From a virus: a stretch of 64,000 nt of DNA. Of this stretch, positions 3,010 through 31,832 are shown piece by piece. The DNA lies in IMG/VR virus record IMGVR_UViG_3300038312_000193, one strand, 5' to 3'. The stretch's first letter is position 1. Every line of letters starts with the position of its first letter. The position numbers and the translations under genes were made by a program. Below the pieces are notes generated by a model. It was not told the DNA's origin, did no database searches, and saw only the letters and a list, made by a program, of their open reading frames with translations.

Positions 3010-3176
3010 CTGCTACTCAAAATATAGACAAATATACTCATTATCCATATCGAGATTTTTACTGCTTCTTCCTGTATGCTTTCATACTGATAAATCAGAT
3101 ACTACTCACAAGTTCTTGTACAGTCCACAGTCGTAAATTCCCGACTAGCCATCGGTACACACTTATGATAGCTTTA
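3010..3176 (-). ncRNA. TnpB omega-RNA scaffold / IS607-type right end
   Basis: GTACCGATGGCTAGTCGGGAATTTACGACTGTGGA...GAAGCAG...TTTTGAGTAGCAG immediately 3' of tnpB. Confidence 0.75.
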
Positions 3177-5248: not shown

Positions 5249-5453
5249 TATGATTTCACCTCTTACATAAAAGTGTTCAAAAAGATTATTTGGTTATTAT
5301 TTAATCCACAACCATTCTTTATTTTATAACTTCCATGCACAAAGAATATTTAATTCTTTACTTAGAAATTCATTAATTTCTTTTTCTGTGTAAAAATTTT
5401 TATAATAAAGTTCTTTATTTTTAGAAAACCTAACCGTAATCATTTATAACCTC

Positions 5454-6044
5454 CTAATTTAATTTTATTTCCTCCAATATTTCTATCTGATTATTACTAA
5501 ACACCACAATAGTCTGTTCTTGCAAATTTAAAAAATCTTCTAAATCACAATATCCAGTTATGTAATTTTCATAACCATAATAAGAAATACTATATAAATC
5601 AATTCCATCTTCTTCTAATTTTAATTTATATTTGTGACCTCTAGGGGTAACATAGGTAGTCTCACCAGTAGAATATAATTCTTGCTCATTTATTTGTGGA
5701 ATATCATTAAATATAATGCCATCATAACCCATAGATTGAAGGCGTAATCTTGTAGCATCAGCTACACTTCTATAACCTTCTAAATTAGATTTCCATAATT
5801 GTTTTACTAACTTATTAATAACTTCATGTGGTGCAGGGTTATTTAGTGTTACTATACACTTCTTTAAATAATTAGGATTTCTAAATGAAGGAGATGTATA
5901 TTTATCGCTGCTAAACCAGAACCCATTATAGTAAGCATCTGTTTCTTCAGCTTTGATTTTATTTACGTCAAAATATGTAAATGATTCTACAGAAGCATGG
6001 TATAAGGTATATTGCATTTCCTCACTCCTTTTTATTTTTGACAT
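5454..6044 (-). CDS. ADP-ribosyltransferase-like protein (ART-PolyVal-like)
   Basis: Pattern LYHAS..F..FD, GFWFS, GYDGIIF and VVFSNNQI. The start is probably the second Met (6017). Confidence 0.6.
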   Translation of the reverse strand: MSKIKRSEEMQYTLYHASVESFTYFDVNKIKAEETDAYYNGFWFSSDKYTSPSFRNPNYLKKCIVTLNNPAPHEVINKLVKQLWKSNLEGYRSVADATRLRLQSMGYDGIIFNDIPQINEQELYSTGETTYVTPRGHKYKLKLEEDGIDLYSISYYGYENYITGYCDLEDFLNLQEQTIVVFSNNQIEILEEIKLN

Positions 6045-6136
6045 TCACATATTTGGAAAGTCTCATGTAATCTTTCATCTTCTTCTACAATAATCGTTAT
6101 AACTCCTTCTCCATTGCAAACTGGACAAGTTTTCAT
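6032..6136 (-). CDS. small Zn-finger peptide (34 aa)
   Basis: AGGAGTG SD; MKTCPVCNGEG...ICECQK. Confidence 0.5.
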   Translation of the reverse strand: MKTCPVCNGEGVITIIVEEDERLHETFQICECQK

Positions 6137-6185
6137 TTAAATATCACTCCTTTCTTTATATTATATTATACTTTTAATAGTTTAA

Positions 6186-7160
6186 TTAATCAAGTTGTTT
6201 CAAATAATTATCAATCTCTTTTTTAATTTGTGTTGCAATTGCTTTGGATAATGGAACTGGTACTGCATTAGCAACCATTTGTATTTTTTCATTTAAAGTA
6301 CCAACAAAAACATGATCATCGGGGAAACCTTGAATCCTAGCCCCTTCTCGGACTGATATAATCCTATTTTCTTCTGGATGAATTATTACTGACTTACCAA
6401 AATGCACTAAAGTATTTGACGGTTTATCATTATGTAGTCTACTATATAAAGTAGATTGAGTCTTTGATTTATGCAAATTTATTTTATATTTTTCAGGTAA
6501 GCATTCCCAATTACCACCAGGAGGAATATAAGAAATTTTATGTATAGTCTCTTCTTTACTGTTTCTTCTATCTAGTTGATTAGAAACATTATCATTTAAT
6601 CCTTTGAACGCATCTCTTATAGTCAAATATTTAATTAATGGCTCTGGATGTTTTATAATTCCTATCCTGCTGCCAATAAATATAGCTCTCTTTCGTATCT
6701 GTGCTACTCCATAATCATAAGCATTTAAAACTTTAACTTCAATATGATAATCTGGCAATCGTTCTTTAAACTCTTTAATAAATAGACCATCTAAAGCAGT
6801 TATTACTTGGGGAACATTTTCATAAACAAACACCAAAGGATTAACTTCTTGAACCTTATGTATATAACTTAAAACTAAACTATTTTTAGGATTATCTAAT
6901 AATTTTGAACCATTCTTTCTATTGGTATTAGATAAACTCTGACATGGTGAACCTCCTATGACAACATCAGCGAATCCTTTATTAAATTTTAAATTATTAA
7001 CATCATCACAAATAACTTTATGATTAAAATTATGTTCTAATGTCTTGCAGCAATCTTTATTAAAATCTGTACTTAGTATCAAGTTAAATCCTGCCTGTTT
7101 AAAACCTAGATCAAGGCCACCACCTCCTGAAAATAGTCCTAATACTGTATATTTTTTTAT
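6186..7160 (-). CDS. DNA cytosine-C5 methyltransferase (AUA start)
   Basis: Motif I LFSGGGG lies upstream of the called start; also GSPCQ, ENV, QIRKR, RIQGFPD and NAVP. Confidence 0.9.
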   Translation of the reverse strand: MKKYTVLGLFSGGGGLDLGFKQAGFNLILSTDFNKDCCKTLEHNFNHKVICDDVNNLKFNKGFADVVIGGSPCQSLSNTNRKNGSKLLDNPKNSLVLSYIHKVQEVNPLVFVYENVPQVITALDGLFIKEFKERLPDYHIEVKVLNAYDYGVAQIRKRAIFIGSRIGIIKHPEPLIKYLTIRDAFKGLNDNVSNQLDRRNSKEETIHKISYIPPGGNWECLPEKYKINLHKSKTQSTLYSRLHNDKPSNTLVHFGKSVIIHPEENRIISVREGARIQGFPDDHVFVGTLNEKIQMVANAVPVPLSKAIATQIKKEIDNYLKQLD

Positions 7161-7254
7161 AAATAATCACTCCATTTTAATTATTTTATTCTTTTTATCG
7201 ACTATTTATCTCACCTCCTTGTTTGAAATATTTGAATGAATCCTCCATTTGGAT

Positions 7255-7527
7255 TTAAATTGTATAAAAATTTCCATATCCATGTTCTTCCCTAACTCTA
7301 TTACCATTTTCATCTAGTCTATACCAATACCAAAAATTACTTAAACCATGATTCCCCCAAAATTGACCATTAATTATTTCTATCTTATATATTTCTCCAA
7401 TTTTATAATGTTCACTATTATGAAAAGGTATAAATAATACTATTTGACCATTATTAGGTTTATTTATTTTATTTGGTTCAGTATTAAATTCTTCCATAAA
7501 ATCTTTTGCCCATTGTTGAACCGCCAT
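7255..7527 (-). CDS. hypothetical cassette protein
   Basis: ORF with GGAGG SD, bounded by 18-bp sites. Confidence 0.65.
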   Translation of the reverse strand: MAVQQWAKDFMEEFNTEPNKINKPNNGQIVLFIPFHNSEHYKIGEIYKIEIINGQFWGNHGLSNFWYWYRLDENGNRVREEHGYGNFYTI

Positions 7528-7741
7528 AATCTATAACCTCCTGTTAAAACAAAATCAAAGTTTTGTGTTATATTCTTTTAATTGATATAGAAATTCCTCA
7601 TCATTACCACTAACAGATAGCATTTTCTTTAATTCTTGAATTGTTCCTCCATTGTTAATAAAGTATTCTAATTGTCGCACTATCACATCATTAAACAACT
7701 TAATATTCCCCCTTTCATTATAAACTCTTCGTTTTATTCCA

Positions 7742-7912
7742 TTATATGTTTTCTAATTCCATTTCAATATCTTTCATTAAACAATAACCATCACAATCTG
7801 CTTCATCGTAATATACTGTTTCAGATAATAAGTTAAGTACATAATGAGAATCTTCTTGTTTTTGTAATAATTCCAAGCAAGCCTTTAATAATGTAATTTT
7901 TCTATCTTCCAT
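7742..7912 (-). CDS. small hypothetical cassette protein (56 aa)
   Basis: MEDRKITLLKACLELL...YYDEADCDGYCLM; SD present; bounded by 18-bp sites. Confidence 0.6.
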   Translation of the reverse strand: MEDRKITLLKACLELLQKQEDSHYVLNLLSETVYYDEADCDGYCLMKDIEMELENI

Positions 7913-8305
7913 AACTATTTACCCCTTCCTATTATATTGATTTAAATCTACAGTTTTATGCAGACTTCTCTTTCAATTGTTCTAACAGCTCTATTGTACT
8001 ATCAATTTCTTCTTTCTTAATCACATTCCCTGCTGCAAACTTATGTAATTTACTTGTTATTATTTTAATTTGATGCCAATAATCTTTGGTTTTTTAGGTA
8101 GAACTTCGCCATATTTAATGCTTCTTCAGGTGTATTTCCTTGACTACTACAAATTATTCCATCATTAACCTATACATCACAAATCCAACCTACTTCATTA
8201 TTAAAATAAATTTTATAAGTTTTATGTTTCATGCTCTTACCCCTCTCTGTTATTATATTTTTATTTTAATGCAATATGTGTTAATTTGTCAATGCTTAAC
8301 TTAAT

Positions 8306-8503
8306 CTAACTTACTATCTTTATTGCCGGATTTCTACCTGTTATAGCAATTACTCCTTTTTCTGTAATAATGGTTATAATATGTATTTTGTTATTCTGAA
8401 TGTCTGCTACTATCGTGTATGACAAGGTTCGGTCTGTTATGTAAACTTTTCTGTTTTTAATGCTGTTTAGATTATTTAATTTGTTAATAGTTTGCCTTAT
8501 CAT
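8306..8503 (-). CDS. DUF4258/RelE-fold-like remnant, related to 26142-26513
   Basis: Similar C-terminal pattern (VYITD..SYTIVADI...IHIITII); appears 5'-truncated at an 18-bp site. Confidence 0.4.
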   Translation of the reverse strand: MIRQTINKLNNLNSIKNRKVYITDRTLSYTIVADIQNNKIHIITIITEKGVIAITGRNPAIKIVS

Positions 8504-8557
8504 CTGTTCTGTTATTTGACGTTGTTTTGTTCTCTCCTTCCAAATAAAACTCGCATT

Positions 8558-8716
8558 TTATAGATATTTTTTATCGGTTTTCTTATACCAGCCCAATACC
8601 GAATCAGGTTTGATAACATAGCATTTCTCTTTATCACCATCATCCTGAATCCATATAATCATATTTTCAGAAGCTCTTTTTAATGTTTCAAATGCCTTTT
8701 CTATTGCCATATCCAT
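8558..8716 (-). CDS. small hypothetical cassette protein (52 aa)
   Basis: AGGAGAGG SD; stop codon lies inside an 18-bp site. Confidence 0.55.
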   Translation of the reverse strand: MDMAIEKAFETLKRASENMIIWIQDDGDKEKCYVIKPDSVLGWYKKTDKKYL

Positions 8717-8756
8717 GTTAACCTCTCCTTTTTTTAGATAAATCTCTTATTTGGTT

Positions 8757-8993
8757 TTATTTCTTCAGTATAGCCATTATTTTCTTTTGTGCCATACCTT
8801 TGAATTCTGCCTTAACTTCATCTATTACCTCTTCAAATGCTTCGTTTACCATATTTTCAATCACGTTTGGATCAAACATGTAAAAATCATACTGCTCCAA
8901 GTCGGTTTGAAATTGTTCTTTAATAATTTCTTTGAATGCTTGCCTTAACTCGTCCTTATCTTCCGATGTGAATAAGATACCTATATTATCCAT
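8757..8993 (-). CDS. hypothetical cassette protein
   Basis: ORF with SD, between 18-bp sites. Confidence 0.65.
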   Translation of the reverse strand: MDNIGILFTSEDKDELRQAFKEIIKEQFQTDLEQYDFYMFDPNVIENMVNEAFEEVIDEVKAEFKGMAQKKIMAILKK

Positions 8994-9090
8994 ATATAAC
9001 TTCCTTTCTGTTGTGCTAAAATAACCATTTCATGTTGATTTTGAATTTTAACAATGCCTGTATATCGGCATTCATTTTTATAAAAAACAT

Positions 9091-9279
9091 TTATTTGATA
9101 ACAATATCTCTTGCTTGAAATATTTCTATTGCATCATTAACCGTAAAGTCCTTTATATATTCTTTCATATCTTCTATATCTTCAACTAATTCTTCTTCGG
9201 TTTGATACCATTTGTAACCTCTTTCCATCATCCCTTCCATGTTTTCAAATGAATAAAGTAATAGAAATTTATTATCCAT
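9091..9279 (-). CDS. hypothetical acidic protein
   Basis: Start at MDNKF after AAGGAGG. Confidence 0.65.
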   Translation of the reverse strand: MDNKFLLLYSFENMEGMMERGYKWYQTEEELVEDIEDMKEYIKDFTVNDAIEIFQARDIVIK

Positions 9280-9336
9280 TATATCCCTCCTTAATTTAAC
9301 AAAACCCCACATTTATCATATTATTATGTTAATTAT

Positions 9337-9450
9337 TTGAACCTCTCATCACTAAAGTGACGAGATTCCTGTTTCATAGACTTCGTAACCTCCATCTCCA
9401 CAGGCTTAAAATCCGATAGTCCCTACCGTACTAGTATTTAGATCAAACGC
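9337..9450 (-). mobile_element. Orphan IS200/IS605 right end / TnpB omega-RNA scaffold
   Basis: ACGGTAGGGACTATCGGATTTTAAGCCTGTGGAGA...GTCTATGAAACAGGAATCTCGTCACTTTAGTGATGAGAGGTTCAA, with terminal hairpin and TTCAA end. Confidence 0.8.
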
Positions 9451-9714
9451 AAACTGTTATATGTCTATACTAATCCTAATTCCTTTATTTTATTTATACT
9501 ACATATCACCTCTTTATTTTTTGTATTTAAAGGTATTAATTTTGCTTTATTTGATACTATTATTGGTATTTCATATATCGTTTTTATAATATAATCTTCA
9601 ATAAAAAATCTTAAATTATTTAAAGGGAAAGTGACCACAATATTTTCTTTTTCTTCTATTGTTGTTTTTGATATATTGTAATAATATTCAAATATTTTTA
9701 TCATCTCCTTACTA

Positions 9715-10803
9715 TTATACCATTACTTCCTGTTTATACTTCGGACTTTCACCATACATTTCTATTGCTTTATTTATCTGCTCCTGGAATTTTTCTGCCC
9801 CATGTTTATCTATCATTTTCTTTAGCTCTTCAAACACTTGTTTCTTAGTAATTCCATTTACAATTCTCAAACCACTTCTTGCTTCAGATATTTGCCAACA
9901 ATCTTCAAAGTTAGTAATAAACATGTTAAGACCGAATTTGTTATATGCTTCTGCCTGGATTTCTTCAAAGTGAGGAACTGGCACTCTAATATTGCGGTAA
10001 AAAGTTTGGATGTCCTTTTCATGCTTTTGTCTTTTTTTATAAGGTACTATACCTTTATATTGTGATTTTGTTATATTATTTAATATTTCATATGTGCCTT
10101 TATTGGTGGATGGTAGTTTAATCCCTGTTATATGATAAAACACTTTCTTACTGGTTTTATTCCCCAAATGTAACCAATCAATTAAACATTCTTTACACCA
10201 ATGACCATATTTAGAATCGTCAATGTTATCAATATAAACAAGCAACTTAATCATATCACCTTTAAAACTACCTATTTCATCTATCCATATATTTTGCATC
10301 AAAATCATTTTATTATTATCATTATAATTCTTTAATTGTTCATTTGTCCAAGATTGAAATCCAAATACTTTTTCTTCATGTTCTTTCTTCGTTTGCTCCT
10401 GTGCGAGTTTCTCACTTATTTGCTTTTCAATTTCTTTCTGGTTTCTTTCTTGTTCGTCCTTAATGAATGATTCAATTGTTACTTCATTAGTTAACTCCTT
10501 TAATATAAGATACACAGCAAAGTTATATAAAGTCTTTTCAATTGTCCAATATGAATTATCTTTTGTTTTTAAATGGTATTCGTCTTTAGGTTTTGTATTC
10601 CCTCCTATTTTCTTACTATAGTGTGATACATTTTCTTCAAATTTTGGTATATCACCTTCTATAACTTGATTAACTACAAATTGTTTATTGGTTAATACTG
10701 TGCCGTTATAGCGTTTTTTACTATCAAGCAATTTCTCTGCTCTGGCCTTTTCCATTGGTTTCATATTATCAGTAAATCCTAAATATGTATTATCCAAATT
10801 CAT
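9715..10803 (-). CDS. hypothetical phage protein (362 aa)
   Basis: Long ORF with SD AGGAGTGG. Confidence 0.7.
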   Translation of the reverse strand: MNLDNTYLGFTDNMKPMEKARAEKLLDSKKRYNGTVLTNKQFVVNQVIEGDIPKFEENVSHYSKKIGGNTKPKDEYHLKTKDNSYWTIEKTLYNFAVYLILKELTNEVTIESFIKDEQERNQKEIEKQISEKLAQEQTKKEHEEKVFGFQSWTNEQLKNYNDNNKMILMQNIWIDEIGSFKGDMIKLLVYIDNIDDSKYGHWCKECLIDWLHLGNKTSKKVFYHITGIKLPSTNKGTYEILNNITKSQYKGIVPYKKRQKHEKDIQTFYRNIRVPVPHFEEIQAEAYNKFGLNMFITNFEDCWQISEARSGLRIVNGITKKQVFEELKKMIDKHGAEKFQEQINKAIEMYGESPKYKQEVMV

Positions 10804-10816
10804 TTATCCCACTCCT

Positions 10817-11350
10817 TTACTGCTCATACGCACAAATAACTTTATCACCTAAATCAATTCCATATCCTTTCCCACTTGCCAGCGGTTTAATCATATCAAT
10901 AAACTTTGATTTAGTCTTATGTTCATTCCCTGCTATATCAATAAAATCTTGCCAGTAATTCCATGTGTCATATCTATTATTTATTGTTTGTTCTAAATAA
11001 CATACTAATGCTCTGTCGGCTGGTAACGAATATGAAGCATGGTTTGTTATATTCCCCTGTTCATCAATAGATTTAATAATTGAATTTTGATTATTCATTA
11101 TATACACTCCTTTTATATTTTAGTTTTAAAGGGAAGGATATTACACCTTCCCTTATGTAGTTTACTCAAACATTCCTTCTGCATCTTCTAATGCTACTAT
11201 TAAACCATCAAATTCCTCTCCTGGCATTATATCAGCTAACTCTGTAACAATATTCAGAGATATTGAATAATCATCTGCCATATATTTAAGATAATCTTCC
11301 CGGTTCTTATAACCATTTGCCTGAAAATCTTTCTCTGTTAGTTCGCTCAT
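10817..11350 (-). CDS. two small hypothetical genes (10817-11098, 11162-11350)
   Basis: ORFs with SDs, separated by the hairpin AAGGGAAGG...CCTTCCCTT. Confidence 0.6.
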
Positions 11351-11394
11351 TTAATACACTTCCTTTATGTAATATTTGTTTTTATCCTACATTT

Positions 11395-11423
11395 ATTTTA
11401 TACTTATATTGTAATGTTGTCAA
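11395..11423 (-). promoter_or_regulatory. sigma-A early promoter
   Basis: TTGACA-17-TAAAAT; shares TTGACAACATTACAATA with the promoter at 29558-29586. Confidence 0.75.
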
Positions 11424-11600
11424 CAGGAAAATGAGATAAATCATGATACAATGTCCACCATCAACCGTATAATAATTATAGGGTTTTAATTCTTCTGGAA
11501 TATCATCAAAATATTTAATTGGTTTTATCATATGTTTTATATCTTCTAAACTTTTTCTCATATCAAACTCTTCTCCTTTCTTTTCTATTGTTAAAAACTG

Positions 11601-11999
11601 TTACGCTTTAAAAATCGTTCTTCCTATTTTATGATTAATAACCTCTTGAATTTCATCATTTGTAAATACTGCTTCTGTTCCATTTTCTTCAGCCAACGCT
11701 TCAAATAATTCCTCTGATCTTTCTTGTAGTACAATATGCCATTTTTTTAAGGATTCAGGTGTAAATTCATGTAAAAATGTATTTTGTGTAAATATCGTTC
11801 CACTATTCAAAATACCAGAAAATTCATTAATATCATTATAAATATCAACATCAATTTTTTGTTTTCCTTCATGATCTAATCTATATTTTACAATCATAAT
11901 ATTTTTCATTTTCCCAAGCTTACCCGTGTTTTTAATAATTGCACGAGTGTAATTTAAAAATTTATTAGAATTCCCTGTTATTTTCATATTAACCTCCAA
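11601..11999 (-). CDS. hypothetical protein
   Basis: ORF with SD. Confidence 0.65.
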   Translation of the reverse strand: MEVNMKITGNSNKFLNYTRAIIKNTGKLGKMKNIMIVKYRLDHEGKQKIDVDIYNDINEFSGILNSGTIFTQNTFLHEFTPESLKKWHIVLQERSEELFEALAEENGTEAVFTNDEIQEVINHKIGRTIFKA

Positions 12000-12008
12000 C
12001 CTCCTATT

Positions 12009-13049
12009 TTACATTCTAATTTCTTTGCTAATTGGTGGAAACTTACTTAAATAGGCAATTGCTCTTTCTTCAAATTTTGTAAGTTCTCTTACATTATACC
12101 ATCCTTTTTCACTTTCAAACATCTGCCAATATTTTTTACCTGTTTCTTTATCTGCTGTTGCCAGCCCACCCTTTTCTAACCCTTTTCCCACAACATAATT
12201 CGGATTAACTGTATACCCAAAATCAAATATGTTTCTACATTGGAATTGTGCTTTTTCTTCTGTTGCCGGATCAATAATTTCAACTATAGCGTAAGGATCT
12301 TTTTCTTCACCTTGAGAATAACCCTTTTTAATAATTTTAACATTCATTGTTTTCTTTTCTTCTTCGAGTTTTTGTTTTACTGCATCCTCTTCTTTTTTCT
12401 TTTCAATTCTACCTTGCAAAATATCGGTTAATTTTATTTCAAATCCAGTAACAACAATATTTTTATAACCATGATATTTGTGTGATTCTTCGTTATATTC
12501 AGGGTTTAGGACATCTCCAAGATCTTCAATTGTGCCAACAGATTTTTTAATTTTTCTTTCAATGTATTCACAAGAATTTGATACCCATTCATCACTACCC
12601 ATTACCTGTTTAATAGCTTTTTTCATAATTTCTTGTTCAAGTCCATTTAAATCTTCAGGTAAATTTCTTATCCAAGGTTGATAATGAGGCCAATCACACC
12701 CAACAATTCCAAAATGAATATTCCTTTTTCCTTCTACTAATTCATTCACTACTTGATTTATGTTTTGTTCCCTTTCTGCTTTAAATTGTTCAAAAAGATT
12801 TTTAACTTCTGTTAATATGTTCTCTGGTAGTCCTACACCATTAACTTTTTTACCTTTTATTTTTACGTCATATAAACTCATTGCATTATGCTGCGGTAGG
12901 AATTCAGAATTATAATAGTAACCTTCGGGATCATGTTTGTTTTCATGGATACCTTCAATTTTATGCGCCATAACTAATTTACCATACTGATTAAGTCTAG
13001 GATTTTTAAAATAAAATTTAATCCCTTGTTTTTCAAATTCAAAATTCAT
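12009..13049 (-). CDS. hypothetical phage protein (346 aa)
   Basis: Long ORF with SD and a promoter-like sequence at about 13120-13149. Confidence 0.7.
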   Translation of the reverse strand: MNFEFEKQGIKFYFKNPRLNQYGKLVMAHKIEGIHENKHDPEGYYYNSEFLPQHNAMSLYDVKIKGKKVNGVGLPENILTEVKNLFEQFKAEREQNINQVVNELVEGKRNIHFGIVGCDWPHYQPWIRNLPEDLNGLEQEIMKKAIKQVMGSDEWVSNSCEYIERKIKKSVGTIEDLGDVLNPEYNEESHKYHGYKNIVVTGFEIKLTDILQGRIEKKKEEDAVKQKLEEEKKTMNVKIIKKGYSQGEEKDPYAIVEIIDPATEEKAQFQCRNIFDFGYTVNPNYVVGKGLEKGGLATADKETGKKYWQMFESEKGWYNVRELTKFEERAIAYLSKFPPISKEIRM

Positions 13050-13471
13050 TTAAATCATTCCTTTCATTTTGTTTGTTATTCCTGTTTTACTTCCGATTTT
13101 CCTGTTGACCTTATGATTAATTATATCATGTTGGCAATATTAAAATCAAGTGTTTTTATAATATATTTATTTTATTAATTTGATATTGAGTCCAAATGTA
13201 CTTTTTATAATCTTATTACAAAAGCTTCAAAAAAGTAATTAGTATCCTTAATTTCATAGTCTGCTAAATGTGTTACTTGCCTCAAAACTTCGCCAATAAA
13301 ACCAAATGCCACTTCTTTCCCGTCAACAAAAATTGATAAATGACTAGCATTAAGGTTGTTAAAATTTATATCTCTTAGTTTCATTTCTCCTGCCTCCTTT
13401 CAACATGAAATCTCCTTTTAAATCATCATGATAAATGCCTTGTTTGATAATGTTTTTATTTTATTAATATA

Positions 13472-13500
13472 ATTATATACTATCAATTTAATACTGTCAA
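13472..13500 (-). promoter_or_regulatory. sigma-A early promoter
   Basis: Perfect TTGACA-17-TATAAT. Confidence 0.8.
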
Positions 13501-13509
13501 CATGAATTA

Positions 13510-14268
13510 TTAACTTACTTTTCTTTTATTATATTTTCTTTTAGGTTTTCTATTTATTTCTTCAAATTGTTTGTAATCTTCGGTTAACCATTCAAATATT
13601 TTCTCAAGTCTTTCTTGTGTAAAATTTGAATTATTTTCATTATACCATTCATCTAAGGTAAACTTCCATTTCTGATCATTACAACTACCACAAGAAGGAA
13701 TACAATTATTTAACCCATCCCCTCCTTCATGATTAACATGTTCTTTATGTAAATCAATTTTTTGTGGTTCACCAGCATATATACGATAATGATTTTCTAT
13801 AGGAAGTCCACAATAAGCACATTGATAGTTAAAATATTTTTTACAAGCATCCCATTCTTGTTTGGTTATATTATGGTTTTTATGTCTTCTATCTTCATTA
13901 TATTTAATCATTTTTTCAGGATATTTTTCAAAATATCTTTCAAAATACCCTCTTTCTCTTAACCCTTTTTGAATTTTTCTTCTTGCAAATAATCTTTCTG
14001 GTTTCCTATCATATTTTCTTTGATTTTCTAATTGTTCTTCATAATTATCTCTCTGTCTTATATCTGCTCTAATAATTTCACATCTTTTACAAGATGGATT
14101 TAAACCATCTTTTTTATTTTTAACATTTGAATAAAAATATTCATTAGTACATAATAACCAATCATCTTCTTCTGGAAAATAAATTTGATGATTTACACAT
14201 TTTTTATATAAAACTCCATCTATTTCTTTATGATAATCTTCGTAATTATATTTCGTACCTCTTGACAT
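13510..14268 (-). CDS. HNH endonuclease
   Basis: CAYCG...LHKEHV...NCIPSCGSCNDQK; N-terminal Zn ribbon. Confidence 0.85.
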   Translation of the reverse strand: MSRGTKYNYEDYHKEIDGVLYKKCVNHQIYFPEEDDWLLCTNEYFYSNVKNKKDGLNPSCKRCEIIRADIRQRDNYEEQLENQRKYDRKPERLFARRKIQKGLRERGYFERYFEKYPEKMIKYNEDRRHKNHNITKQEWDACKKYFNYQCAYCGLPIENHYRIYAGEPQKIDLHKEHVNHEGGDGLNNCIPSCGSCNDQKWKFTLDEWYNENNSNFTQERLEKIFEWLTEDYKQFEEINRKPKRKYNKRKVS

Positions 14269-14287
14269 TTATTATATAATCCTCCTT

Positions 14288-14584
14288 TTATACTTCTTTT
14301 AAAAATTCTCTCACATCAAAATCAAACGCTACTGCCAAATGTAACGCTTGATCAAACATAGGAATATTATTAGCGGTAGGTGCTAACCAAGAATATACAT
14401 TCGGGGAGGTATATCCTAACTCAATTATTTGTTTTGGTTTAATACCATACTCGGTTAATATTCTTTTGAGATTCTTCTTTATTACTTGCCTATCAACTAA
14501 ATTATACCGATTAATTAATTCTAAAAACTCTCTTTGTGTTTCTAATTTGTTTATCTGGTTAATTCTTGTTTCTAGAGTTTGCAT
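14288..14584 (-). CDS. XRE-type HTH protein
   Basis: NLKRILTEYGI...VYSWL...P.FDQALHLAVAFD. Confidence 0.6.
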   Translation of the reverse strand: MQTLETRINQINKLETQREFLELINRYNLVDRQVIKKNLKRILTEYGIKPKQIIELGYTSPNVYSWLAPTANNIPMFDQALHLAVAFDFDVREFLKEV

Positions 14585-15096
14585 TATTGATACTCCCTTC
14601 TTTGCTTGTAAATTTATTATATCATAAAATTAATAAGTCCCAATATTACGGCATTTCACCTGCGACCAAACCCAGGATTTATAACGATTCTGTTATGCTA
14701 TTTTCTCAATTAACCAAACGCCTGAATGAAACCATGTTTCTTTTGCTATACCTAAATCAAAACAATCTTTAATCATTCTGGCAACATCTAAATCAAAATC
14801 GTTATCCTCTAACCAATTTCCTGCTGATCCCTCAAATACTATTTTATTATCGTTGGTTACTCTTATGTTCATCTGTTATACTCCTTTCAAATTTTATTTA
14901 ATTACCTTTTCGATTATATTTCTCCACTCTTCCACTCTTGATTGATAGGCAATTTTTTCAGCATCTTTTTTATTTTCAAATACATCAATAATCTTTAGTA
15001 CTTCGTTTTTAACTAATCCAATCACAATATAAACTTTTTTATTTTTCATTTTTCAACCTCCTGTTATTATAAAATGATTGATTTATCATGATTTTA

Positions 15097-15900
15097 TTAA
15101 ATATATGCCTCCCACCAAACCATCTCAAAATTAAATCCTCCAATTATAACCCCACATCTATCACAATAAAATTTATTACCTTCTTCACGCAAATAATCTC
15201 TTTGTGTCCAATACGCATCCCAACAATGTTCATTTTCTATGAGATAATCTATCAATTCTTGTTTGGTTTGAAAATGTTTCCACATTATTTATCACTCCCA
15301 TTTAAATTTATGCCATACACATCTTTAACCCATCTTTTAATTGTATGACTATAATTTATAAGTCCTTCCCAATTACAAACTTCATCAAATACCTGGTCTG
15401 GTGATAATTGATTAAATATATTATCTTTACTCTTATCTGTTGCCTCTAAATCTTCTCGTTGTCTTAACTTTTTAAGAATATACTCAGGATATGCCATAAT
15501 ATATCTAACTCCTTTTCATATTTTATTGGCTTAATGCCCATTCCCATTGACAAGTAGGAGAAATTTTACCATAACCATAAGGATGATCTATTAATATTCT
15601 ACTATCAATTATTGTTTTTATATACCTTAAACCTTGGCAGTATTCTGATATTTCTATAATAGGATTATATTCTATGTTATTACGATAAAAAGTACAGTTA
15701 TGAACATTAATACCCTGGATGTAACTTTGTACTATTTCATCTTCTTTAGTAACTTCACCTATACCAATATGATTAAATTGTCCACAAGCTGAAGTAATTA
15801 TATATTTGTTACCATTGTCCTTTTCAAAAATAAAATATGCTTTCTTGTTTATGTACTGGTTATCTAACAACCAATATAAGTATTTTTTTAAATTAATCAT
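15097..15900 (-). CDS. three small hypothetical early genes (15097-15285, 15285-15497, 15523-15900)
   Basis: Co-directional ORFs with SDs, below the promoter at 15934-15962. Confidence 0.65.
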
Positions 15901-15933
15901 TTAAACCACTCCTTTATAATTTATTATAGTTAT

Positions 15934-15962
15934 ATTATAAAGGAGTGTATTCATATTGTCAA
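15934..15962 (-). promoter_or_regulatory. sigma-A early promoter
   Basis: Perfect TTGACA-17-TATAAT. Confidence 0.8.
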
Positions 15963-15994
15963 CATTATTTTCTTATTGTATTTATATTTTTATT

Positions 15995-16738
15995 CTAGTT
16001 ATACATTTCACCAAATGCTTTTGCCATATAAACAGGTACTCCATTACCTATCGCTTCGTATAAATTATAAATCCATTGTCCTTTAGTTTTATTTCTTCCA
16101 GTTTTACTATTAATTTCATTTAACCATTCTTCAGGAACATTATACCATTCTTTAGGTATTATAAAACCTTGATGATAAGCACATTCTTCTAAGGTTAGTC
16201 TTCTACCATAAAATCTACTTGCTCTACGTTTATCTTTAGTGCTACCTTTATATTCTGTTGCGGTAATACACGGACAAATATCTTTAAATGTTTTCTGATA
16301 ATCACTATATATATCGGGTAATTTATAATTCCCACCAATCATTCTATTCCTATTTTGAATTGGATGCTCAAGAAATTGTGCTGCATTAAATGGTTTACCC
16401 CAGGTTGGCATTCTCCCTTGAGGGATTACATTTTCAACCCACAAAATATCTTTTTTAATATTTAAACTCCAATTAAGAAAATCTCCTGCATATTTTGAAG
16501 TTGGTTCTCCTTGTGTTCTAGCGGAACTAAATTGTTGACATGGAGGGGATGCCCAAACAGCATCAAATTCCTTTAAATCAATTTGTGTTGCATCTGCTAA
16601 AATACAATTGCCACTACCTACAAATTTACTTAAATAATGTTTCCAAGGATCAAGTTCATATCCTGTACATTCATGTCCTGCTTGTTCTAATCCTAATCTA
16701 GCAAGACCTGCTCCATCAAATAATACTGCTATTTTTAT
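15995..16738 (-). CDS. Compact DNA cytosine-C5 methyltransferase (247 aa, AUA start)
   Basis: The in-frame extension contains VLFDGAG and WASPPCQ; then ENV, QNRNR, RRLT..ECA.HQGF and IGNGVP. Confidence 0.85.
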   Translation of the reverse strand: MKIAVLFDGAGLARLGLEQAGHECTGYELDPWKHYLSKFVGSGNCILADATQIDLKEFDAVWASPPCQQFSSARTQGEPTSKYAGDFLNWSLNIKKDILWVENVIPQGRMPTWGKPFNAAQFLEHPIQNRNRMIGGNYKLPDIYSDYQKTFKDICPCITATEYKGSTKDKRRASRFYGRRLTLEECAYHQGFIIPKEWYNVPEEWLNEINSKTGRNKTKGQWIYNLYEAIGNGVPVYMAKAFGEMYN

Positions 16739-16912
16739 ATGTATTTCCTCCTTTAATTATTATATTGTATTTTTAATGCATTAAATATTTTACACAATCA
16801 TCACTCCTTTATAAATAAAAATAGTATTAATTTCATTAGTTTTTTAAACTAAATCCACCAATACCATTAAAATATTTGGCGTTTATTATTTAATTATATA
16901 TTTATAATTAGT

Positions 16913-19900
16913 TTATTTAAAATTAACTCCTTGTTTTTTTAATATAGAAAAGATATTTTTTAACTGCCATTTTAAATTAATTCCTAATTCAATGGTCATT
17001 GTGTTATCATCCTCATCTGCAATGCTCATAAAATCCTGATATTCTGGTTGTAGTTTTAATGCTATTACATTTAGTTGTATTTGTAATGCTACATTCTTTT
17101 CATGTTCAAAAATCTTTAATACCTTTTTTGCTTTTTCTATTTCTTGTTTCAATTCATTATTTTCTTTTTTAAGTATTTCTAATTCTGTCATATTAGTCAT
17201 CTCCTTTAAAAATCGTTTATTAACTATATATATTATAGTAGCAATATATATAGATTGTCAATCACATATTTATATTATGTTTATAATTTTTATTTAATTC
17301 CTTAATAACCAGGTTTTAATATTAATAGAATACATTGTTTGAACCAAACGATTCTTCTATGCTGTTATAGGTAATTCCCATTGATAAGTATTTTCAGTCC
17401 ATTTATAACCTAATTCTATTAAGAATATATGAAAAAGTTCTTCTACCTTATCCCATAATTTTTCTTCGTTATCGGTAGTTATTTCTGCACATTTTGTGTA
17501 AATATAATTATATTGTTCATTACTTAAATTTACTTTTTCATAATCTTCGCTATTTTTGGTAGATTCTAATATTTCCGTTGCTCTTTTATTCATTATTAAC
17601 CCCACCTTTCTGTTATACATCAAATACCTATTTGGTTTACTTCCAACTGGCTACACATCCTAAATGAGATATTAAATAATCTTCGTTGGCAAATCTAAGT
17701 GTATAGCTTTTAAAGGATGTATTTTTAAATGATATTTCATTAGAATTTTTTAAATAAGTTAATTTGAAACTTGCGAAACTTCTTGATTTATAATTTCTTT
17801 TTGCAATAATGCTGTTATCTACTATTTCAAAATTATGTGATTTTACATGTTCTTTTAAGTATTCATACATTTCATTTATATTTTTCATTTTATCCTTCCT
17901 TTCAACTCATGACCAACTCTGAATTTTATACTAACACAACATTTATACACTTAGGGTAAATTTTATCTTCTCCAATGACAAGTAATGAGTACCATTTATT
18001 ATTTTTAAACCACATGCCAATATATAAATCCTTTAAAGTTTCAAGTTTCCAGTCTGTTATTATTTTTATGTTATTATTATCTGTCATTTGCAATTCATAC
18101 TCATTAAATTGTTCTTGATATTTATCGTATTTTTCACTAATCATTATATACAGTTCTTTTGCTTTGGTTTTTGATGTAAAAGGTATTTCAAAAACTACTT
18201 TTCCATCAAAGTAATGTAATCCTTGCAGTATATACGATCCTCTTTTAGAAGAATCTTTTATTATGTTAAACATACTTATATTTTTGTTCTGATAGTTAAA
18301 ACCTTTTACCAAACAATTAACTTTATATCCTGCATGATAAAATGGTTTTGTTCCTGCATATATACTTTTACCTTTAATAATATTAATTACTTCTCTAGAT
18401 ATTTCCCTTAATTCCTTTTCAGTAAAAAAATTTAAACCTTCCATTTTTAACACTCCTTCAATCTCTTTTATTCTTACTTATGCTCCATTTTCCAAAACTT
18501 AAATCATGATAAAAAAGTTATTTGGTTTTGTTATATTTAGTATATCATATCCGCAACATGAAAGCAAGTACTAATTTTATATTTTATAAATAATTATGCT
18601 ACTTTTTTGGTTTTATTGGTCTGTTTGTAATCTGCTATTATATTTACATCCTGGTTCTTTATCGGATCATGCCATAAATATTTTACTGTTAAGGCACATA
18701 CACCAATTAATATCCATCCTGCTATGGTATATAAGGTTAATATTGTTGCTGTGTTTATGTAATCCTGCGTTGTAATTATCATCCCTATCATTGTATTTAT
18801 ACCTCCTTATATAAATCCTTCCCAGGTTTTAAACCATTCTGAATAATCATAAAGTAAACCACTTTTGTTATAGCAATTTTTTATTACTATTCTGTTCCAA
18901 TTTACTTCTCCACTTTTAAATAAGTCTATAGATACCATACAATCAAGAATACATTGACGGTCTTTATAGATTAATAAGGATTGAGGTTTTAATGTGTAAT
19001 AATCTGCTACAAGTATGGCCTGTTGTAATTCTTCGGGCAGATCATCCCAATTCTCTGTAATAGTTTTTAATTGTTCTGTGGGATGTGATAAGTTAATTAT
19101 TGTTATTGACATTTGTTATACCTCCATCCGTTTTAATCTTTTTTTAATCAGATTTAATTCATCTTGAAAGAATTTAATCTGGTTAGGGTTATTTTCTTCT
19201 TGATGATATTTAATTGCTCCCTCAGTATAACCTTTACGATATAATAATTCCTCTTTGCTCAAACTTTTAACTGTGTTATATGCATATGAATTTTTATATT
19301 CAATTTTTTCATAACCTATATCATTCATTCGATATACCTCCAATATTTTTATATTAAGGTTTTTGTGCAGAACCTTTAAAACTGCTCTGTTATTGCTTTA
19401 AAACAACCTTGTATATAATCCTGTTACTGAGGTAAAAATGTCTTCTAACATATCGGCATAAACATCTTTGTATTCCTTAATGATTACAATCTCTTCATCA
19501 TAAATTTTAATTCCCATTGCTTTATACTCTGGTGTTTTACATTCAGGTTTTAAAGTCTTTTTAATTCTGCTGAATGTCAAGTTATAGAGATCAAGGCCAT
19601 TAAGTTGTATTTTAAGATACTGAGCCTTTGAATTATTCCTGGTTAGTTTGATGACAAGATATACATACCCTAAATCATCATAACCGTAATACTGGAATTT
19701 ACTGCCTGTCATTATTAAAAACTTACTACCTCCAATTTGTTGAATTATTGTTCTGTAATCACCTATTCTAATTTCATTCTGTTCTGTTATTGCCATTATG
19801 TAAAACCTCCTTATAATCCCCATTTTGCAATTTCAATTTGTGTATGTTTCCGTAGTAAGTAATTAGTACAATCTGTTATTAAACTTTTGAGCCATTTTAT

Positions 19901-20613
19901 CGCCAGTTCTTCATTCCAATCTAATTTTAATTCATAATCTTCAATTTGGTATTCGAGAAATTGCAAGGATTTTAAAACCTGTTCTACGGTCTTGTAATCG
20001 TCTGTTATTTCTCTTTGCATCATTACCTTATAAATAAAATCATCCTTTGTATATACCTGTTCTGCCTGATCATCTTTATATCTGTTATTCCATGATTTAA
20101 CATTCAAGCAATGTAAATAAAATAACTGTTCGGCTCTTTCTTCTGGAAATTCTGTATGTCTTTGTATAAATTCCATCTCACACATTCTAAACATTTGGAT
20201 ACCGTTTAGTAATCTTGTGTATCCTTTTAAATCATCAATCAAAATAACACTCATTGTTATACCTCCTTTTCTATCGCCCAATCTGTCCATGAATCTCTTT
20301 CAATCACAAATAACTGGTTGTTAATCTTTATCTCTATTCCGTCTTTTAACGGACAATCTGGTTCACCTGTAAATGTATTCCAATGATTGACATAAACACC
20401 TTTTGAATATCTATCATTTATATGTCTACTGTACAATCTGCTTGTATTCTTATCTTTGTATATCTCCCTGCAATAACCTTCTTGGTTTTCGATTTTGATT
20501 AAATCTAACATTCGCATACACTCCTTATATACTTTATTTATATTATTAATATGATTAATATATAATAAAATACATACTGTCAACATGTAATTATTTTGAT
20601 TTTTATACTTCAT
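16913..20613 (-). CDS. cluster of ten small hypothetical early genes (16913-17200 ... 20257-20512)
   Basis: Tightly packed ORFs with GGAGG SDs; one membrane protein (18594-18791). No recognisable families. Confidence 0.65.
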
Positions 20614-20655
20614 ATTTAAAGGGATGTTACAACATCATAACACCCCTTATAACTT

Positions 20656-21693
20656 CTATGCTATTTCTTGTTCTCCTTGCACCTGTTCTTGTTTTCCTTG
20701 CCATTCTTCAAATAATTCCTGTAATCCATTTAACCTTCCATTAACTCTTTCTTTTTTTGTTGATCCTGCGCCACAATTATTTTTATAAGCATCTCCTGGT
20801 TTACTGTTTTTACTGTACCATGTAATGAAGTTTGTAGATTCATGTTTACTCTTTTGGGTATTTAAAAATCCTACCATAGACGTTATGTTAATCTTAGTGC
20901 AGAATTTATTATATTTATTGTTAAAGCTATCTGCTATTACTGTAAATAATTCCTCTGTGCGGTTTAATACTTCATCTGTTATTGTGTTGGTCACAAAGAA
21001 TTTTTCAACATCCTTTGCTGCAAAGGTACAAAAATCAAGTCCTGATACTAAGATAATTGATTGAAGTATAGTCATTTGTTTATCTGATTTCTTTATTGCT
21101 CCTGGTGTAAAGTGAGCAACATCGGTAAATAGTTTATGTTCTGTTATCATTCTCTTAACAAATTCTCGTACATTTTTCTTAGCTGATACTAAAGCAAGAT
21201 GCTCTTTACTTACGACTTTACCATTATTCAAACGATAAAAAATATCATTTACGATTGATTCTTCATCATCATTATCGTCAAGTTCGATAAGTTTAAAGGC
21301 CAACATGAAACTTTTGATTTCATCCTGCACTTCTTCTGGTAGTTCTGAAAATTTCTTACCAGAGATATTGAATTTTTCACCTGTAGATTCAAGTTTGATT
21401 TGTGGGAGTTCTGTAAGCTGCCATTCATCGTTAATAAAAGAGTGAATAATAGTAAGACGTTGGAGGCCATCAATAATACTGTAAGTATTCCCTGATTCTT
21501 GTTTCTCTTGTATGGCATAAATATCAGGCACAAACATTTCTAAAATAGAATGGATTAACAATGACTTATCTTCATTTTTCCATTGTCCTGCTGGTCTTTG
21601 CACAGGATTATCAAAAACTATAGTTCCTTTATTAATCATTGTGCTAACCTGCTTTACTGACCATGATAAACTTTTTCTTTGCATTCCGAACAA
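20656..21693 (-). CDS. DUF262 (ParB/Srx-fold, GmrS-like) domain protein
   Basis: FDNPVQRP..W, LLIHSIL, IIDGLQRL and FYRLNNG; no C-terminal HNH. Confidence 0.85.
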   Translation of the reverse strand: MFGMQRKSLSWSVKQVSTMINKGTIVFDNPVQRPAGQWKNEDKSLLIHSILEMFVPDIYAIQEKQESGNTYSIIDGLQRLTIIHSFINDEWQLTELPQIKLESTGEKFNISGKKFSELPEEVQDEIKSFMLAFKLIELDDNDDEESIVNDIFYRLNNGKVVSKEHLALVSAKKNVREFVKRMITEHKLFTDVAHFTPGAIKKSDKQMTILQSIILVSGLDFCTFAAKDVEKFFVTNTITDEVLNRTEELFTVIADSFNNKYNKFCTKINITSMVGFLNTQKSKHESTNFITWYSKNSKPGDAYKNNCGAGSTKKERVNGRLNGLQELFEEWQGKQEQVQGEQEIA

Positions 21694-21723
21694 CTCCTTT
21701 TAATTAATTTCTATCTTATGTTT

Positions 21724-21752
21724 ATTTTATACCTTTGGTTTCATGTTGTCAA
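21724..21752 (-). promoter_or_regulatory. sigma-A early promoter
   Basis: TTGACA-17-TAAAAT. Confidence 0.75.
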
Positions 21753-21783
21753 CATTAAAATAAGAATAAACGATAATTATTTT

Positions 21784-22631
21784 TTATCCTGTTGGTTCAA
21801 GATCATGCGAAATACACCAGGAACAAAATACATCTATATTAGTTCCTATTCCTTGTTGCTGTCTTACTTGTTGGTAATTATTCCAATCACAATACCAACT
21901 ACCAGCTTTGTAATAGGTCTTAATTCCGTTTACATAGCGGATTTTTAGATTACTAGTTGACTTTGTTTTGTTGCTCTTGTTTTTTGTTCTCATTTTATAC
22001 ATCTCCTTTTTATTTTTTGTATTTTAATCCTTCTTAATATGTCGGCTCTGTCATTGTCGGCACATTAAGCAGGATTAAACCTGCTTATAATTTATATTAT
22101 TGTTATGTCAAAATTCCACTCAATACAATCCTTTGTTAAATATCCATTAATATGATCTCCTTCTCTTCCTGTTAATTTCCAGCCTATTTGTTTAAAAAAC
22201 TCATAGTATTTATAAAAATATTCATTATTTGACTTTTTAAATATTTCCCATTTTTTACCGTTTGCTTTATCTGTAATAGTTTTAATCAACATTTTTTAAC
22301 CTCCTCTTATAACTCGTTACCTAATTGTCATTTGGTTTAATTATATTATTTGTTTTGCTAATGTTTCCGTTAATGGGAATCTAACTTGCTTAAATACATT
22401 GTCGTAAAACCTTGGATAATTAATATAGTCTGGAATAATCTCGCTACCATCAGGTAATAAAACTGATTGACTATAACTGCCCAATGACTTGATGCATTCC
22501 TCAATGCTGTTATAGACTTTTATACAATCAAAAGTATTGTGTTCAATCTCATAGGGTGATCTGTTATTCCATGCCCAATCATTAATTTCTCTGATCCGCA
22601 TTTTACCATCATAAAAAGCTTGATAATGCAT
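21784..22631 (-). CDS. three small hypothetical early genes
   Basis: ORFs 21784-22002, 22092-22292 and 22341-22631, each with an SD. Confidence 0.6.
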
Positions 22632-22897
22632 TATTATCCTTCCTTTCCTTCTCCTAAAATTTTACTGTACATGAAATTTGCTTTCTATCATGTTATTTTA
22701 ATGTAATTAATGCCATTCGATTAAGATCAATTGTTAATATATTGAAATGATCTAGTTTTTTAATTAAATCTGCATCATACCAGATAGGTTCTCCGTTTTC
22801 TTCAATCTCTTTTGTTATTCTGTTAATCCAATATTGCTTATTAAATACTTTAGTTTTCAATTTGTTCAACTCCTTATTTGTTTAATTCGTTATATTG

Positions 22898-22926
22898 ATT
22901 ATAAACCCTGCTATTCATATTGTCAA
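22898..22926 (-). promoter_or_regulatory. sigma-A early promoter
   Basis: Perfect TTGACA-17-TATAAT. Confidence 0.8.
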
Positions 22927-23053
22927 TATGATTTTGCTACTATCTTTATATTTTTTATTTAATTCTCTGAAAAATAAATGCCATTATTCAGGCATTCACA
23001 AAACGGCAAATAGTCATAAAATCAATCTTTTGTAATGTTCGGGAATTGTTCTG

Positions 23054-23452
23054 TTATGCTGATTTATTACTTATATATTGATAATATTTATCTGGTAATT
23101 TTACCATTAATAATAACCTGTTTGTTATTTGTCTATGCTTTTTGCAATGTCTCCATTGTTCTATATGTGCTAATTCGTGACAGATTACTTCTTCTAATGT
23201 TTGACCGTTTAATTCCCATGTGCTGGTAATACTATCTAAAATAAAGTATGTATAGCATTCATGGACAAAAAATTCATCAATTGTTATATGGTAAATATCA
23301 AATTGGTTTCTCCAACATATTCCTAATGATTCTTTTGATTTGCCTTTTAAAGTGCTATGATCCATAATTGTTATATTAATATCCATAGTGCATTCGATTT
23401 GAGTTAATGTTTTTTGTACTGTTTGATCAAAATATTCTTGCTCTGTTATCAT
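23054..23452 (-). CDS. SprT/zincin-like metallopeptidase
   Basis: ICHELAH...H motif. Confidence 0.7.
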   Translation of the reverse strand: MITEQEYFDQTVQKTLTQIECTMDINITIMDHSTLKGKSKESLGICWRNQFDIYHITIDEFFVHECYTYFILDSITSTWELNGQTLEEVICHELAHIEQWRHCKKHRQITNRLLLMVKLPDKYYQYISNKSA

Positions 23453-23696
23453 GCTTTTATACCTCCTTTCTTTATAATATCATATTCCTGCTATACTGTT
23501 ATGCTGTTTTACTTAATAATTTCCGTAGTTCTTGTTCTGTTATTTGATGTTGCACAAATAAGGTTATTAATTTAGTTTTCGTCAATGTAGCATTACCTCC
23601 TTCCTGCTGTTATTGTATTTAATTCCTTTTTAGAGTGCTAAACTGTTATTGTTATTTATATTATGTATATGTTTAGCACTCAGGAAAAGAATTAAA

Positions 23697-26127: not shown

Positions 26128-26141
26128 TATATTACCTCCTA

Positions 26142-26448: not shown

Positions 26449-26637
26449 TTCCTCCTTCTGCTACTGTTATGGGAATTATAGGATTTTTGGGTAATGGTAC
26501 TATTATTATACATTGTTTCACCTCCTTGTATGTTAATAAATCCTTTATTGAGTGCTATATATTTTAATTATATTACTGTTATACTGTTATGCTTTTATTA
26601 GCACTCTAAAAAGATTTAATTATATTGTTATTGTGTA

Positions 26638-31794: not shown

Positions 31795-31832
31795 TATATT
31801 AATAATTTAACTAAAACAAAGGAGATAACAAA

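Follow-up and report, generated by a model that had tools for sequence, protein, structure and literature searches.

A two-fold-symmetric DNA site at small-gene junctions of a large Clostridium-type phage and its possible role in module exchange

Do the small accessory genes of a large phage carry a dedicated element at their junctions, and what would such an element be for? The question is raised by IMG/VR virus record IMGVR_UViG_3300038312_000193, a 64,000-nt stretch of viral DNA (the whole of which is called the window here), in which an 18-bp site with inverted arms recurs between small genes from about 5 to 23 kb. A preliminary description listed 21 positions of this site and proposed that they bound integron-like gene cassettes, with operators for an MrpR-like repressor as the alternative. 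Our analysis confirms that a two-fold-symmetric DNA site between many small accessory genes of this phage and its relatives is real and conserved. We tentatively prefer, with less than even confidence, to see in it a recombinase-type junction site that serves the exchange of gene modules.

The pattern in its strict form reads AYVAA-N8-TTBRT. In the whole window it has 24 matches against 15.9 expected, which is not significant alone, and 16 of the 24 fall within 5–23.5 kb. The intergenic segments of that region hold 13 matches against 0.85 expected when each segment is dinucleotide-shuffled on its own (maximum of 5 in 1000 shuffles). The strict pattern is not enriched in the late-gene arm (1 match vs 0.68 expected). 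Generic inverted repeats of the same geometry stay at background level, which shows that the signal is a specific sequence and not palindromy as such. As the pattern had been fitted to this very sequence, we sought evidence that does not depend on it. Expectation–maximization (EM) motif discovery on intergenic DNA with the ribosome-binding sites (RBSs) trimmed returned AtnAAA-N6-TTTtAT as the top motif, with a log-likelihood of 250 compared with 62–86 in five shuffled sets. Close-relative loci were fetched via homologues of a 362-amino-acid (aa) anchor protein, which has no match among GenBank phages. In their own intergenic DNA, the strict pattern occurs 10 times vs 1.05 expected in locus L008 and 8 times vs 0.73 in L009, and much of this pattern-bearing DNA is non-homologous to the window. 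A further 44 distant metagenomic loci (40–70% identical in the 362-aa protein) gave 140 intergenic matches against 19.8 expected, and EM on these loci alone returned the same motif. Using a 32-bp matrix built from relatives only, with the window and L008 left out, 12 window sites were found at a score of at least 14, against 0.2 expected, all but two of them intergenic and in the early arm. The proposed recurrence of a site at gene junctions is thus borne out by the matrix and by junction enrichment over the AT-rich background, and is replicated in relatives. No enrichment was seen at 135–185 kb of Clostridium phage c-st, a stretch of mostly structural genes, and a limited literature search found no description of the motif.

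Of the 21 positions listed earlier, 15 are upheld, four are weak candidates and three are rejected. Strict matches (13 by count) underlie the listed positions so marked below; 9016 and 17343 are backed by the independent matrix; 5277, 7236, 7942 and 22671 are weak candidates with one mismatch each; and 13405, 14726 and 14756 are unsupported, with 14726 and 14756 lying inside an open reading frame (ORF). Two unlisted strict matches, at 15937 and 22901, were rejected, being merely the -35/-10 spacing of a repeated promoter. The sites, read on the minus (coding) strand and scored with the relatives-only matrix, are:

7549–7566: ACAAAA-ctttga-TTTTGT, strict match, score 15.6; L008 homology stops at its 3' edge
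7720–7737: ATAAAA-cgaaga-GTTTAT, strict match, score 16.8
8544–8561: ATAAAA-tgcgag-TTTTAT, strict match, score 11.4; the left arm contains the stop codon of gene 8558–8716
8738–8755: ACCAAA-taagag-ATTTAT, strict match, score 14.0
9016–9033: ATGAAA-tggtta-TTTTAG, one departure from the strict pattern, score 14.0; the centre TGGTTA recurs in many relatives
9299–9316: ATAAAT-gtgggg-TTTTGT, strict match, score 17.2
13431–13448: ATCAAA-caaggc-ATTTAT, strict match, score 19.0; downstream of the promoter at 13500–13472
14665–14682: ATAAAT-cctggg-TTTGGT, strict match, score 15.7; L008 homology begins at its 5' edge
15069–15086: ATAAAT-caatca-TTTTAT, strict match, score 19.0; left end of a two-gene segment (14660–15090) missing from L096
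17343–17360: ATAGAA-gaatcg-TTTGGT, score 13.6; a TAG stop codon lies within the left arm
17619–17636: ACCAAA-taggta-TTTGAT, strict match, score 14.8 for the 18-bp core, flanks poor
17912–17929: ATAAAA-ttcaga-GTTGGT, strict match, score 17.4; the left arm contains the stop codon of gene 17926–18444
18509–18526: ACCAAA-taactt-TTTTAT, strict match, score 20.0; L008 homology stops at its 3' edge, and L096 is without a site here
23016–23033: ACAAAA-gattga-TTTTAT, strict match, score 15.3; about 90 nt upstream of the promoter at 22926
28053–28070: ACCAAA-ccgaaa-TTTGAT, strict match, score 18.4; beyond the range listed earlier
5277–5294: weak candidate ACCAAA-taatct-TTTTGA, score 5.5; L008 homology begins in its left arm
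7942–7959: weak candidate ATAAAA-ctgtag-ATTTAA, score 8.5; L008 homology begins in its left arm

Each site is formed by the inner half-sites AYNAAA and TTTNRT around a 6-bp centre, with a weaker mirror symmetry that extends about 7 bp further out on each side. In an unconstrained EM matrix, the two halves mirror each other even in the base frequencies at degenerate positions. The outer flanks agree as well: position -3 is C in 35% and T in 50% of sites, and the complements stand at +22 in 38% and 50%, with similar agreement at -1, -4 and -7. Deviations at mirrored flank positions have a correlation of 0.90 when all loci are taken and of 0.67 within the window's clade. Stop codons may explain the upstream flank, but not its downstream mirror, which counters an origin in composition or stop codons. 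That the sites are a functionless by-product of AT-rich composition, TAA stop codons and T-rich leaders would agree with the non-significant whole-window count and with the stop codons often held in left arms. Such an origin is nevertheless barely credible, given the excess over segment-wise shuffles, the seven-fold excess over expectation in relatives, the de novo recovery of the motif, the mirrored downstream flank and the lack of the motif in the late-gene arm of the same genome.

Covariation between the arms is absent among 179 unique sites (complementary pairs at positions 2/17, 104 vs 102.3 expected; at 3/16, 83 vs 83.7), and in the centre complementarity is depleted. As the arms vary independently, they read as two half-sites on duplex DNA for a symmetric protein dimer and not as an RNA or DNA hairpin or an attC site. 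Judged from these sequence features, the elements are most likely double-stranded sites for a two-fold-symmetric protein dimer. The motif has the layout of Xer/dif core sites, i.e. two inverted arms of ~11 bp around 6–8 bp. In the XerH–difH complex, the 6-bp central region is barely contacted, the inner 5 bp of each arm are read specifically and the outer bases are contacted on the backbone (PMC5241119). The information profile of the motif matches this description in its 6-bp centre, its conserved inner arm bases and its weaker symmetric outer bases, in agreement with the tyrosine-recombinase core-site architecture proposed earlier.

In a distant clade (L043–L082), a second near-palindrome, of the type CAATATTTGG / CCAAATATTG, flanks many sites, and a composite example in L057 and L060 reads TTTGA ATGAAA cagata TTTGAT CACATTATATGGAAA. 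Some ATGAAA... sites of this clade read as the start of a short conserved peptide (MKQIF...), at times with in-frame stop codons.

The placement of the sites was assessed next to stop codons, start codons and promoters. At short junctions, a stop codon overlaps the site or lies at most 15 nt from it in 98% of cases. In short spacers the site begins a median of 1 nt past the stop codon, which often falls inside the left arm as A-TAA-AA or A-TAG-AA, and ends a median of 24 nt ahead of the next start codon and about 5–10 nt ahead of the RBS. The earlier observation that the sites overlap or abut a stop codon just before the next RBS therefore holds. In spacers of 100–500 nt, 28% of sites lie close to the stop codon and 31% close to the start codon, where random placement would give 14% and 12%. 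Within the genome the sites keep to one arm, that of the accessory genes.

A fixed place between stop codon and RBS, with the stop often in the left arm, and the restriction to an arm of co-transcribed small genes would suit an intercistronic signal acting on the mRNA, such as an endoribonuclease processing site, a translational operator as for T4 RegA, or a re-initiation aid. We consider such a role improbable. Symmetry reaching into both flanks would be useless in a single strand without pairing, and pairing is absent; the predicted stems would have 3–6 A–U pairs. In long spacers the sites lie as often at the stop codon as at the RBS, some are upstream of a promoter and hence outside the downstream transcript leader, and in L023 the form of the motif is unchanged beside genes on the other strand.

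No promoter had been reported between the units of the array. This is true locally, but not array-wide, as the coding strand of the array holds four sigma-A-type promoters with 12/12 and three with 11/12 consensus matches:

22926–22898, minus strand: perfect TTGACA-N17/18-TATAAT promoter
17261–17232, minus strand: perfect promoter of the same form
15962–15934, minus strand: perfect promoter of the same form
13500–13472, minus strand: perfect promoter of the same form
21752, minus strand: further promoter
11423, minus strand: further promoter
8292, minus strand: further promoter

The perfect promoters have extended flanks in common (TGTTGACAAYATGAA...). The region 13455–13505 is a 51-bp repeat found twice in L008 and once in L012, which may represent a mobile early-promoter cassette and possibly a true operator region. 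Among the strong promoters, only that at 13500 is followed by a site, and at 14682 and 23033 the order is reversed, with the site upstream of a promoter. The sites avoid promoters, which favours their reading as junction sites for module exchange.

Which protein might bind the sites? The window encodes one candidate:

31833–32720, plus strand: XerC/D/A-like tyrosine recombinase of 295 aa (Pfam Phage_integrase, E 2.7e-39, plus an N-terminal SAM-like domain)

Its closest solved relatives are XerA and XerD (E 1e-26 to 1e-23), whereas IntI4 scores only 4e-14. In an alignment with XerA and XerD, the catalytic R, K, HxxR, H and Y are all present, so the gene is predicted to encode an intact recombinase, as stated in the preliminary description. 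Compared with SPbeta proteins, it shows no similarity to MrpR/YopR (BLASTP E 2.5) and a weak one to YopP (E 8e-7). Relatives in GenBank phages are generic only, at 31% identity or less, and a search of viral contigs returned one short contig. Pfam and PHROG scans of about 50 window proteins gave no helix-turn-helix (HTH) regulator or ParB-like candidate, and no further sequence-specific DNA-binding protein could be recognised there beyond an HU homologue. The recombinase is regarded here as the candidate site-binding protein. Both arms of the window sites share one consensus, which implies a homodimer, unlike the XerC plus XerD pair.

Sites at ORF 3' ends and a tyrosine recombinase in the same element would be expected of an integron in the strict sense, in which folded single-strand attC-like sites, an IntI-type integrase, attI and a common promoter serve promoter-less cassettes. 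The integron-like array proposed earlier does not survive the comparison, and we rate it as very improbable. The arms show no pairing covariation, and complementarity in the centre is depleted. The sites are 18–32 bp in length, while attC sites measure roughly 57–141 bp. Strong promoters lie inside the array, and relatives have their genes in collinear order. Against XerA and XerD the recombinase scores far better than against IntI4, and its gene is not adjacent to the array.

A more serious competitor, though still doubtful, is that a dimeric DNA-binding regulator (an MrpR-like repressor, the recombinase acting as a repressor, or a host factor) uses the sites as operators or roadblocks to silence or time the accessory arm, the link to recombination being a by-product of a short conserved junction sequence. 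The known case is the SPbeta repeated element (SPBRE), which is bound by MrpR, a protein of tyrosine-recombinase fold without the catalytic residues (PMC10516654). Derived here from seven MrpR-bound SPbeta promoter regions, SPBRE reads AAATACAAAAAATATGTATATAA, an ATACA-N7-TGTAT dyad, and at yopM, yopV and yonX it lies 23–29 nt before the start codons, abutting the RBS. The window sites are placed similarly before the RBS, with their median of 24 nt to the start. Dyad symmetry without covariation, the limitation to one genome arm and site 13431, which stands between a perfect promoter and an RBS, fit an operator as well. On the other hand, the four perfect and three near-perfect promoters are mostly without a site, and most sites stand at junctions that have no promoter, or upstream of one; the scans of window proteins yielded no HTH regulator; the recombinase keeps its catalytic residues and does not resemble MrpR; and the window pattern is not enriched in SPbeta. 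As for the MrpR-like operators named earlier, membership of that system fails on the different SPBRE sequence and on a recombinase unlike MrpR, yet an operator-like way of working can still be argued in part, because SPBRE also abuts the RBS. Type I restriction targets, CodY, IHF, parS and homing-endonuclease targets were set aside as unlikely on general grounds of orientation, spacing or distribution.

To see whether modules are exchanged at the sites, the window was compared with its relatives. The blocks shared with L008 are 88–98% identical. Their homology ends exactly at the 3' edge of sites 18509 and 7549 and starts in the left arm at 14682, 7959 and 5294; it also ends at a site-like ATCAAATAAATGTTTTTT near 9087. 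L096, which is 98% identical over 6.6 kb, has a single site where the window has two extra genes (14660–15090) between sites 15069 and 14665, and a contig from an independent run has the same joint. The 20-nt site ATAGAAGAATCGTTTGGT at 17343 is identical in the window and L096, with both flanks unrelated. A CCTGGG site together with a promoter-bearing leader precedes three different genes, one in the window and L008, one in L012 and one in L096. At the junction equivalent to that of site 9299, L008, L009 and L022 retain its centre GTGGGG with other arms and flanks, and the centre of site 23016 is also found in L095 with an unrelated left flank. The retention of GTGGGG and CCTGGG while arms or flanks change speaks against an operator, whose uncontacted centre should drift. 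Within the window's clade, there are 17 same-centre site pairs against 1.8 expected, and in seven pairs neither flank is homologous. Homology boundaries fall at sites in 9 of 73 cases vs 6.3% expected (p = 0.04), and in 60 of 1022 vs 2.7%. L009 and L010 are identical, so that no recent breakpoints can be obtained from that pair. In a groundwater run, a few low-depth 'go back' joints were seen, too weak to be read as circles.

Together these observations suggest a mechanism, which we state conditionally. The sites, laid out like the core site of a single-Xer-type tyrosine recombinase, would be bound as duplex DNA by a two-fold-symmetric protein. In this SPbeta/c-st-like Clostridium-type phage, which bears a YonO polymerase, and in its relatives, they stand at ORF-module boundaries across the accessory-gene arm and would act as crossover points at which related phages exchange, gain and lose modules of one to a few genes. 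The phage's own Xer-like recombinase (31833–32720) would be the candidate enzyme, and each centre might serve as a locus-specific label. We infer binding of the sites by this recombinase, and crossovers made by it rather than through short homology; at conserved junctions the two kinds of recombination, site-specific and short-homology, cannot be told apart from sequence alone. A bolder extension, which we hold to be unlikely though worth stating, is that a single Xer-type recombinase and dozens of sites with shared arms and their own centres form addressable junctions. Matching centres in co-infecting relatives would recombine, so that modules are swapped in register as in a natural recombinase-mediated cassette exchange, and mismatched centres would block deletions within a genome.

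Several findings weigh against module exchange by a recombinase. The enrichment of boundaries at sites is only about two-fold, and most boundaries, as well as nearly all single-gene indels of the distant clade, end at RBSs or start codons; this weakness of the recombination evidence favours an operator role. Boundary positions are soft evidence in any case, because BLAST ends are drawn to any conserved short sequence. All blocks shared by the window and L008 are collinear, with no cassette transposition and no module in a new position seen. The same-centre evidence has to be weighted down, because many such sites are diverged orthologous leaders and some ATGAAA... matches are possibly gene starts. 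Strong conservation spans only 6 bp per arm. Centres differ among all sites of one genome, while classical tyrosine recombinases require matching centres. The nearest site is at least 3.8 kb from the recombinase gene, beside which there is no array, and the enzyme could be merely an integrase or dimer resolvase. Thus, the alignment of relatives places some breakpoints inside or at sites and most elsewhere; of the gene-cassette shuffling system proposed earlier, gain and loss of genes and mosaic boundaries at some sites are upheld, and a dedicated system is at most suggested. The probability left over by module exchange, operators and an mRNA signal is spread over an integron, a composition artefact and causes not thought of.

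How the many small accessory and anti-defence genes of large phages turn over is poorly understood, and few dedicated junction elements are known, examples being the PeSLs of T4-type phages and the dif modules of Acinetobacter plasmids. If module exchange at the sites is true, it would offer a testable handle on module turnover in a whole group of uncultured Clostridium-type phages, with one protein, one short site and a prediction of matching centres. If the sites are regulatory instead, the MrpR/SPBRE principle of a recombinase fold as regulator would be extended to a much denser operator network. Either outcome aids the annotation of module boundaries in phage metagenomes.

The genome around the sites has a G+C content of 27%. 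Small genes on the minus strand extend from 1 to about 31.6 kb, and genes on the plus strand start at 31.8 kb. The main features are:

from 31.8 kb, plus strand: the Xer-like recombinase, a UvrD-type helicase, a 937-aa protein (PHROG 8308), PhoH, an exonuclease, an HU-family protein, the large terminase and the portal protein
site-bearing region: also C5 methylases, an HNH endonuclease, a GmrSD_N/DUF262 protein, an ART-PolyVal protein and many ORFans

The 937-aa product belongs to the YonO-type RNA polymerases; its top GenBank matches are in Bacillus phage BUCT082 at 49.8% identity, in Clostridium phage c-st at 31% and in YonO of SPbeta at 25%. We conclude that the window derives from a large phage of the SPbeta/c-st-like kind whose host is a low-GC Firmicute. 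One window protein has homologues in Clostridium genomes and in metagenomes, among them fermentation and groundwater ones. No DNA near-identical to the window was found among GenBank phages, and a tRNA scan of the window found none. A search of viral contigs gave no relatives via a 346-aa protein, and an exact-protein look-up of a 98-aa protein returned no record.

Further observations were made along the window. The heptamer CTGTTAT (ATAACAG on the coding strand) occurs 58 times on the plus strand of 8247–30983 against 14 expected, most densely at 23051–27607. Nearly all copies have one orientation relative to transcription, also inside ORFs, and they often adjoin junction sites; the heptamer is a polar signal, for which a Chi-like function is one idea. 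At 9336–9435, an insertion of ~100 nt is missing from L008 at the same place. Contig depth is raised there in all four runs, and with the loose ends seen at 9337 this points to a small element in multiple copies; this segment has no Rfam or tRNA match, and its RNA fold is modest (z = -2.05). The 138-aa ORF at 15995–16411 matches a C5 methylase over its C-terminal portion only. In the near-identical L096 the gene at this position (8694–9395) encodes 233 aa, so the window copy looks truncated. In L009 (3502–5454, equal to L010 4502–6481), a C5 DNA methylase gene is broken by an intein with Hint_2 and Intein_splicing domains. A RAGATH-18 RNA (3059–3131, minus strand, 70 bits) lies directly downstream of a solo TnpB gene (3177–4217, minus strand; OrfB_IS605 plus Cas12f1-like TNB), tnpA being absent, and is presumably the guide RNA of the adjoining TnpB. 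Between the divergent arms, 30794–31832 is ~1 kb without a called gene, with a C-rich and G-poor part (31260–31700) unlike the rest of the window and short palindromes at 30920–30948 and 30992–31025. It might be an attachment site, an origin or an RNA.

How do the sites compare with known systems? Like integron attC sites, they are recombination-type sites after the ORF of each small unit in an element that has a tyrosine recombinase, but they differ in that folded-strand pairing, conserved R-box triplets and an attI/Pc arrangement are lacking and the order is not reshuffled. With SPBRE, they share a related phage lineage (YonO-type RNA polymerase, 25–50% identity), an AT-rich dyad directly before the RBS and, if the recombinase binds them, a binding protein of recombinase fold. 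SPBRE differs in sequence and spacing and has about ten copies, all in promoter regions, whereas among the window sites only 13431 sits between a strong promoter and its gene; the window recombinase, unlike MrpR, keeps its catalytic residues and has no similarity to it.

The PeSL cassettes of T4-type phages consist of a sigma-70 promoter and a terminator stem-loop and recombine by homology (Arbiol et al. 2010, PMC2839356). In both cases short conserved elements are repeated between small non-essential genes of variable regions, and indels or replacements between relatives end there; the window sites, however, are dyads of protein-binding type without a promoter hexamer pair or a stable stem. 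With Xer/dif sites, the likeness is in the two inverted arms around a 6-bp centre and in specificity residing in the inner arm bases, as shown for XerH–difH. The window sites differ from these in that strong conservation covers only 6 bp per arm and in that the centres are all different within one genome. Their sequence is one that we take to be unrelated to dif. In Acinetobacter plasmids, many dif (pdif) copies lie in the accessory part of the replicon and delimit small gene modules whose movement is attributed to Xer recombination (PMC6449649, PMC13141974). Here, too, many copies bound small modules in an accessory part, but the replicon is a phage with its own Xer-like gene. The closest counterparts are the Xer/dif sites bounding Acinetobacter dif modules in architecture and the PeSL cassettes of T4-type phages in behaviour.

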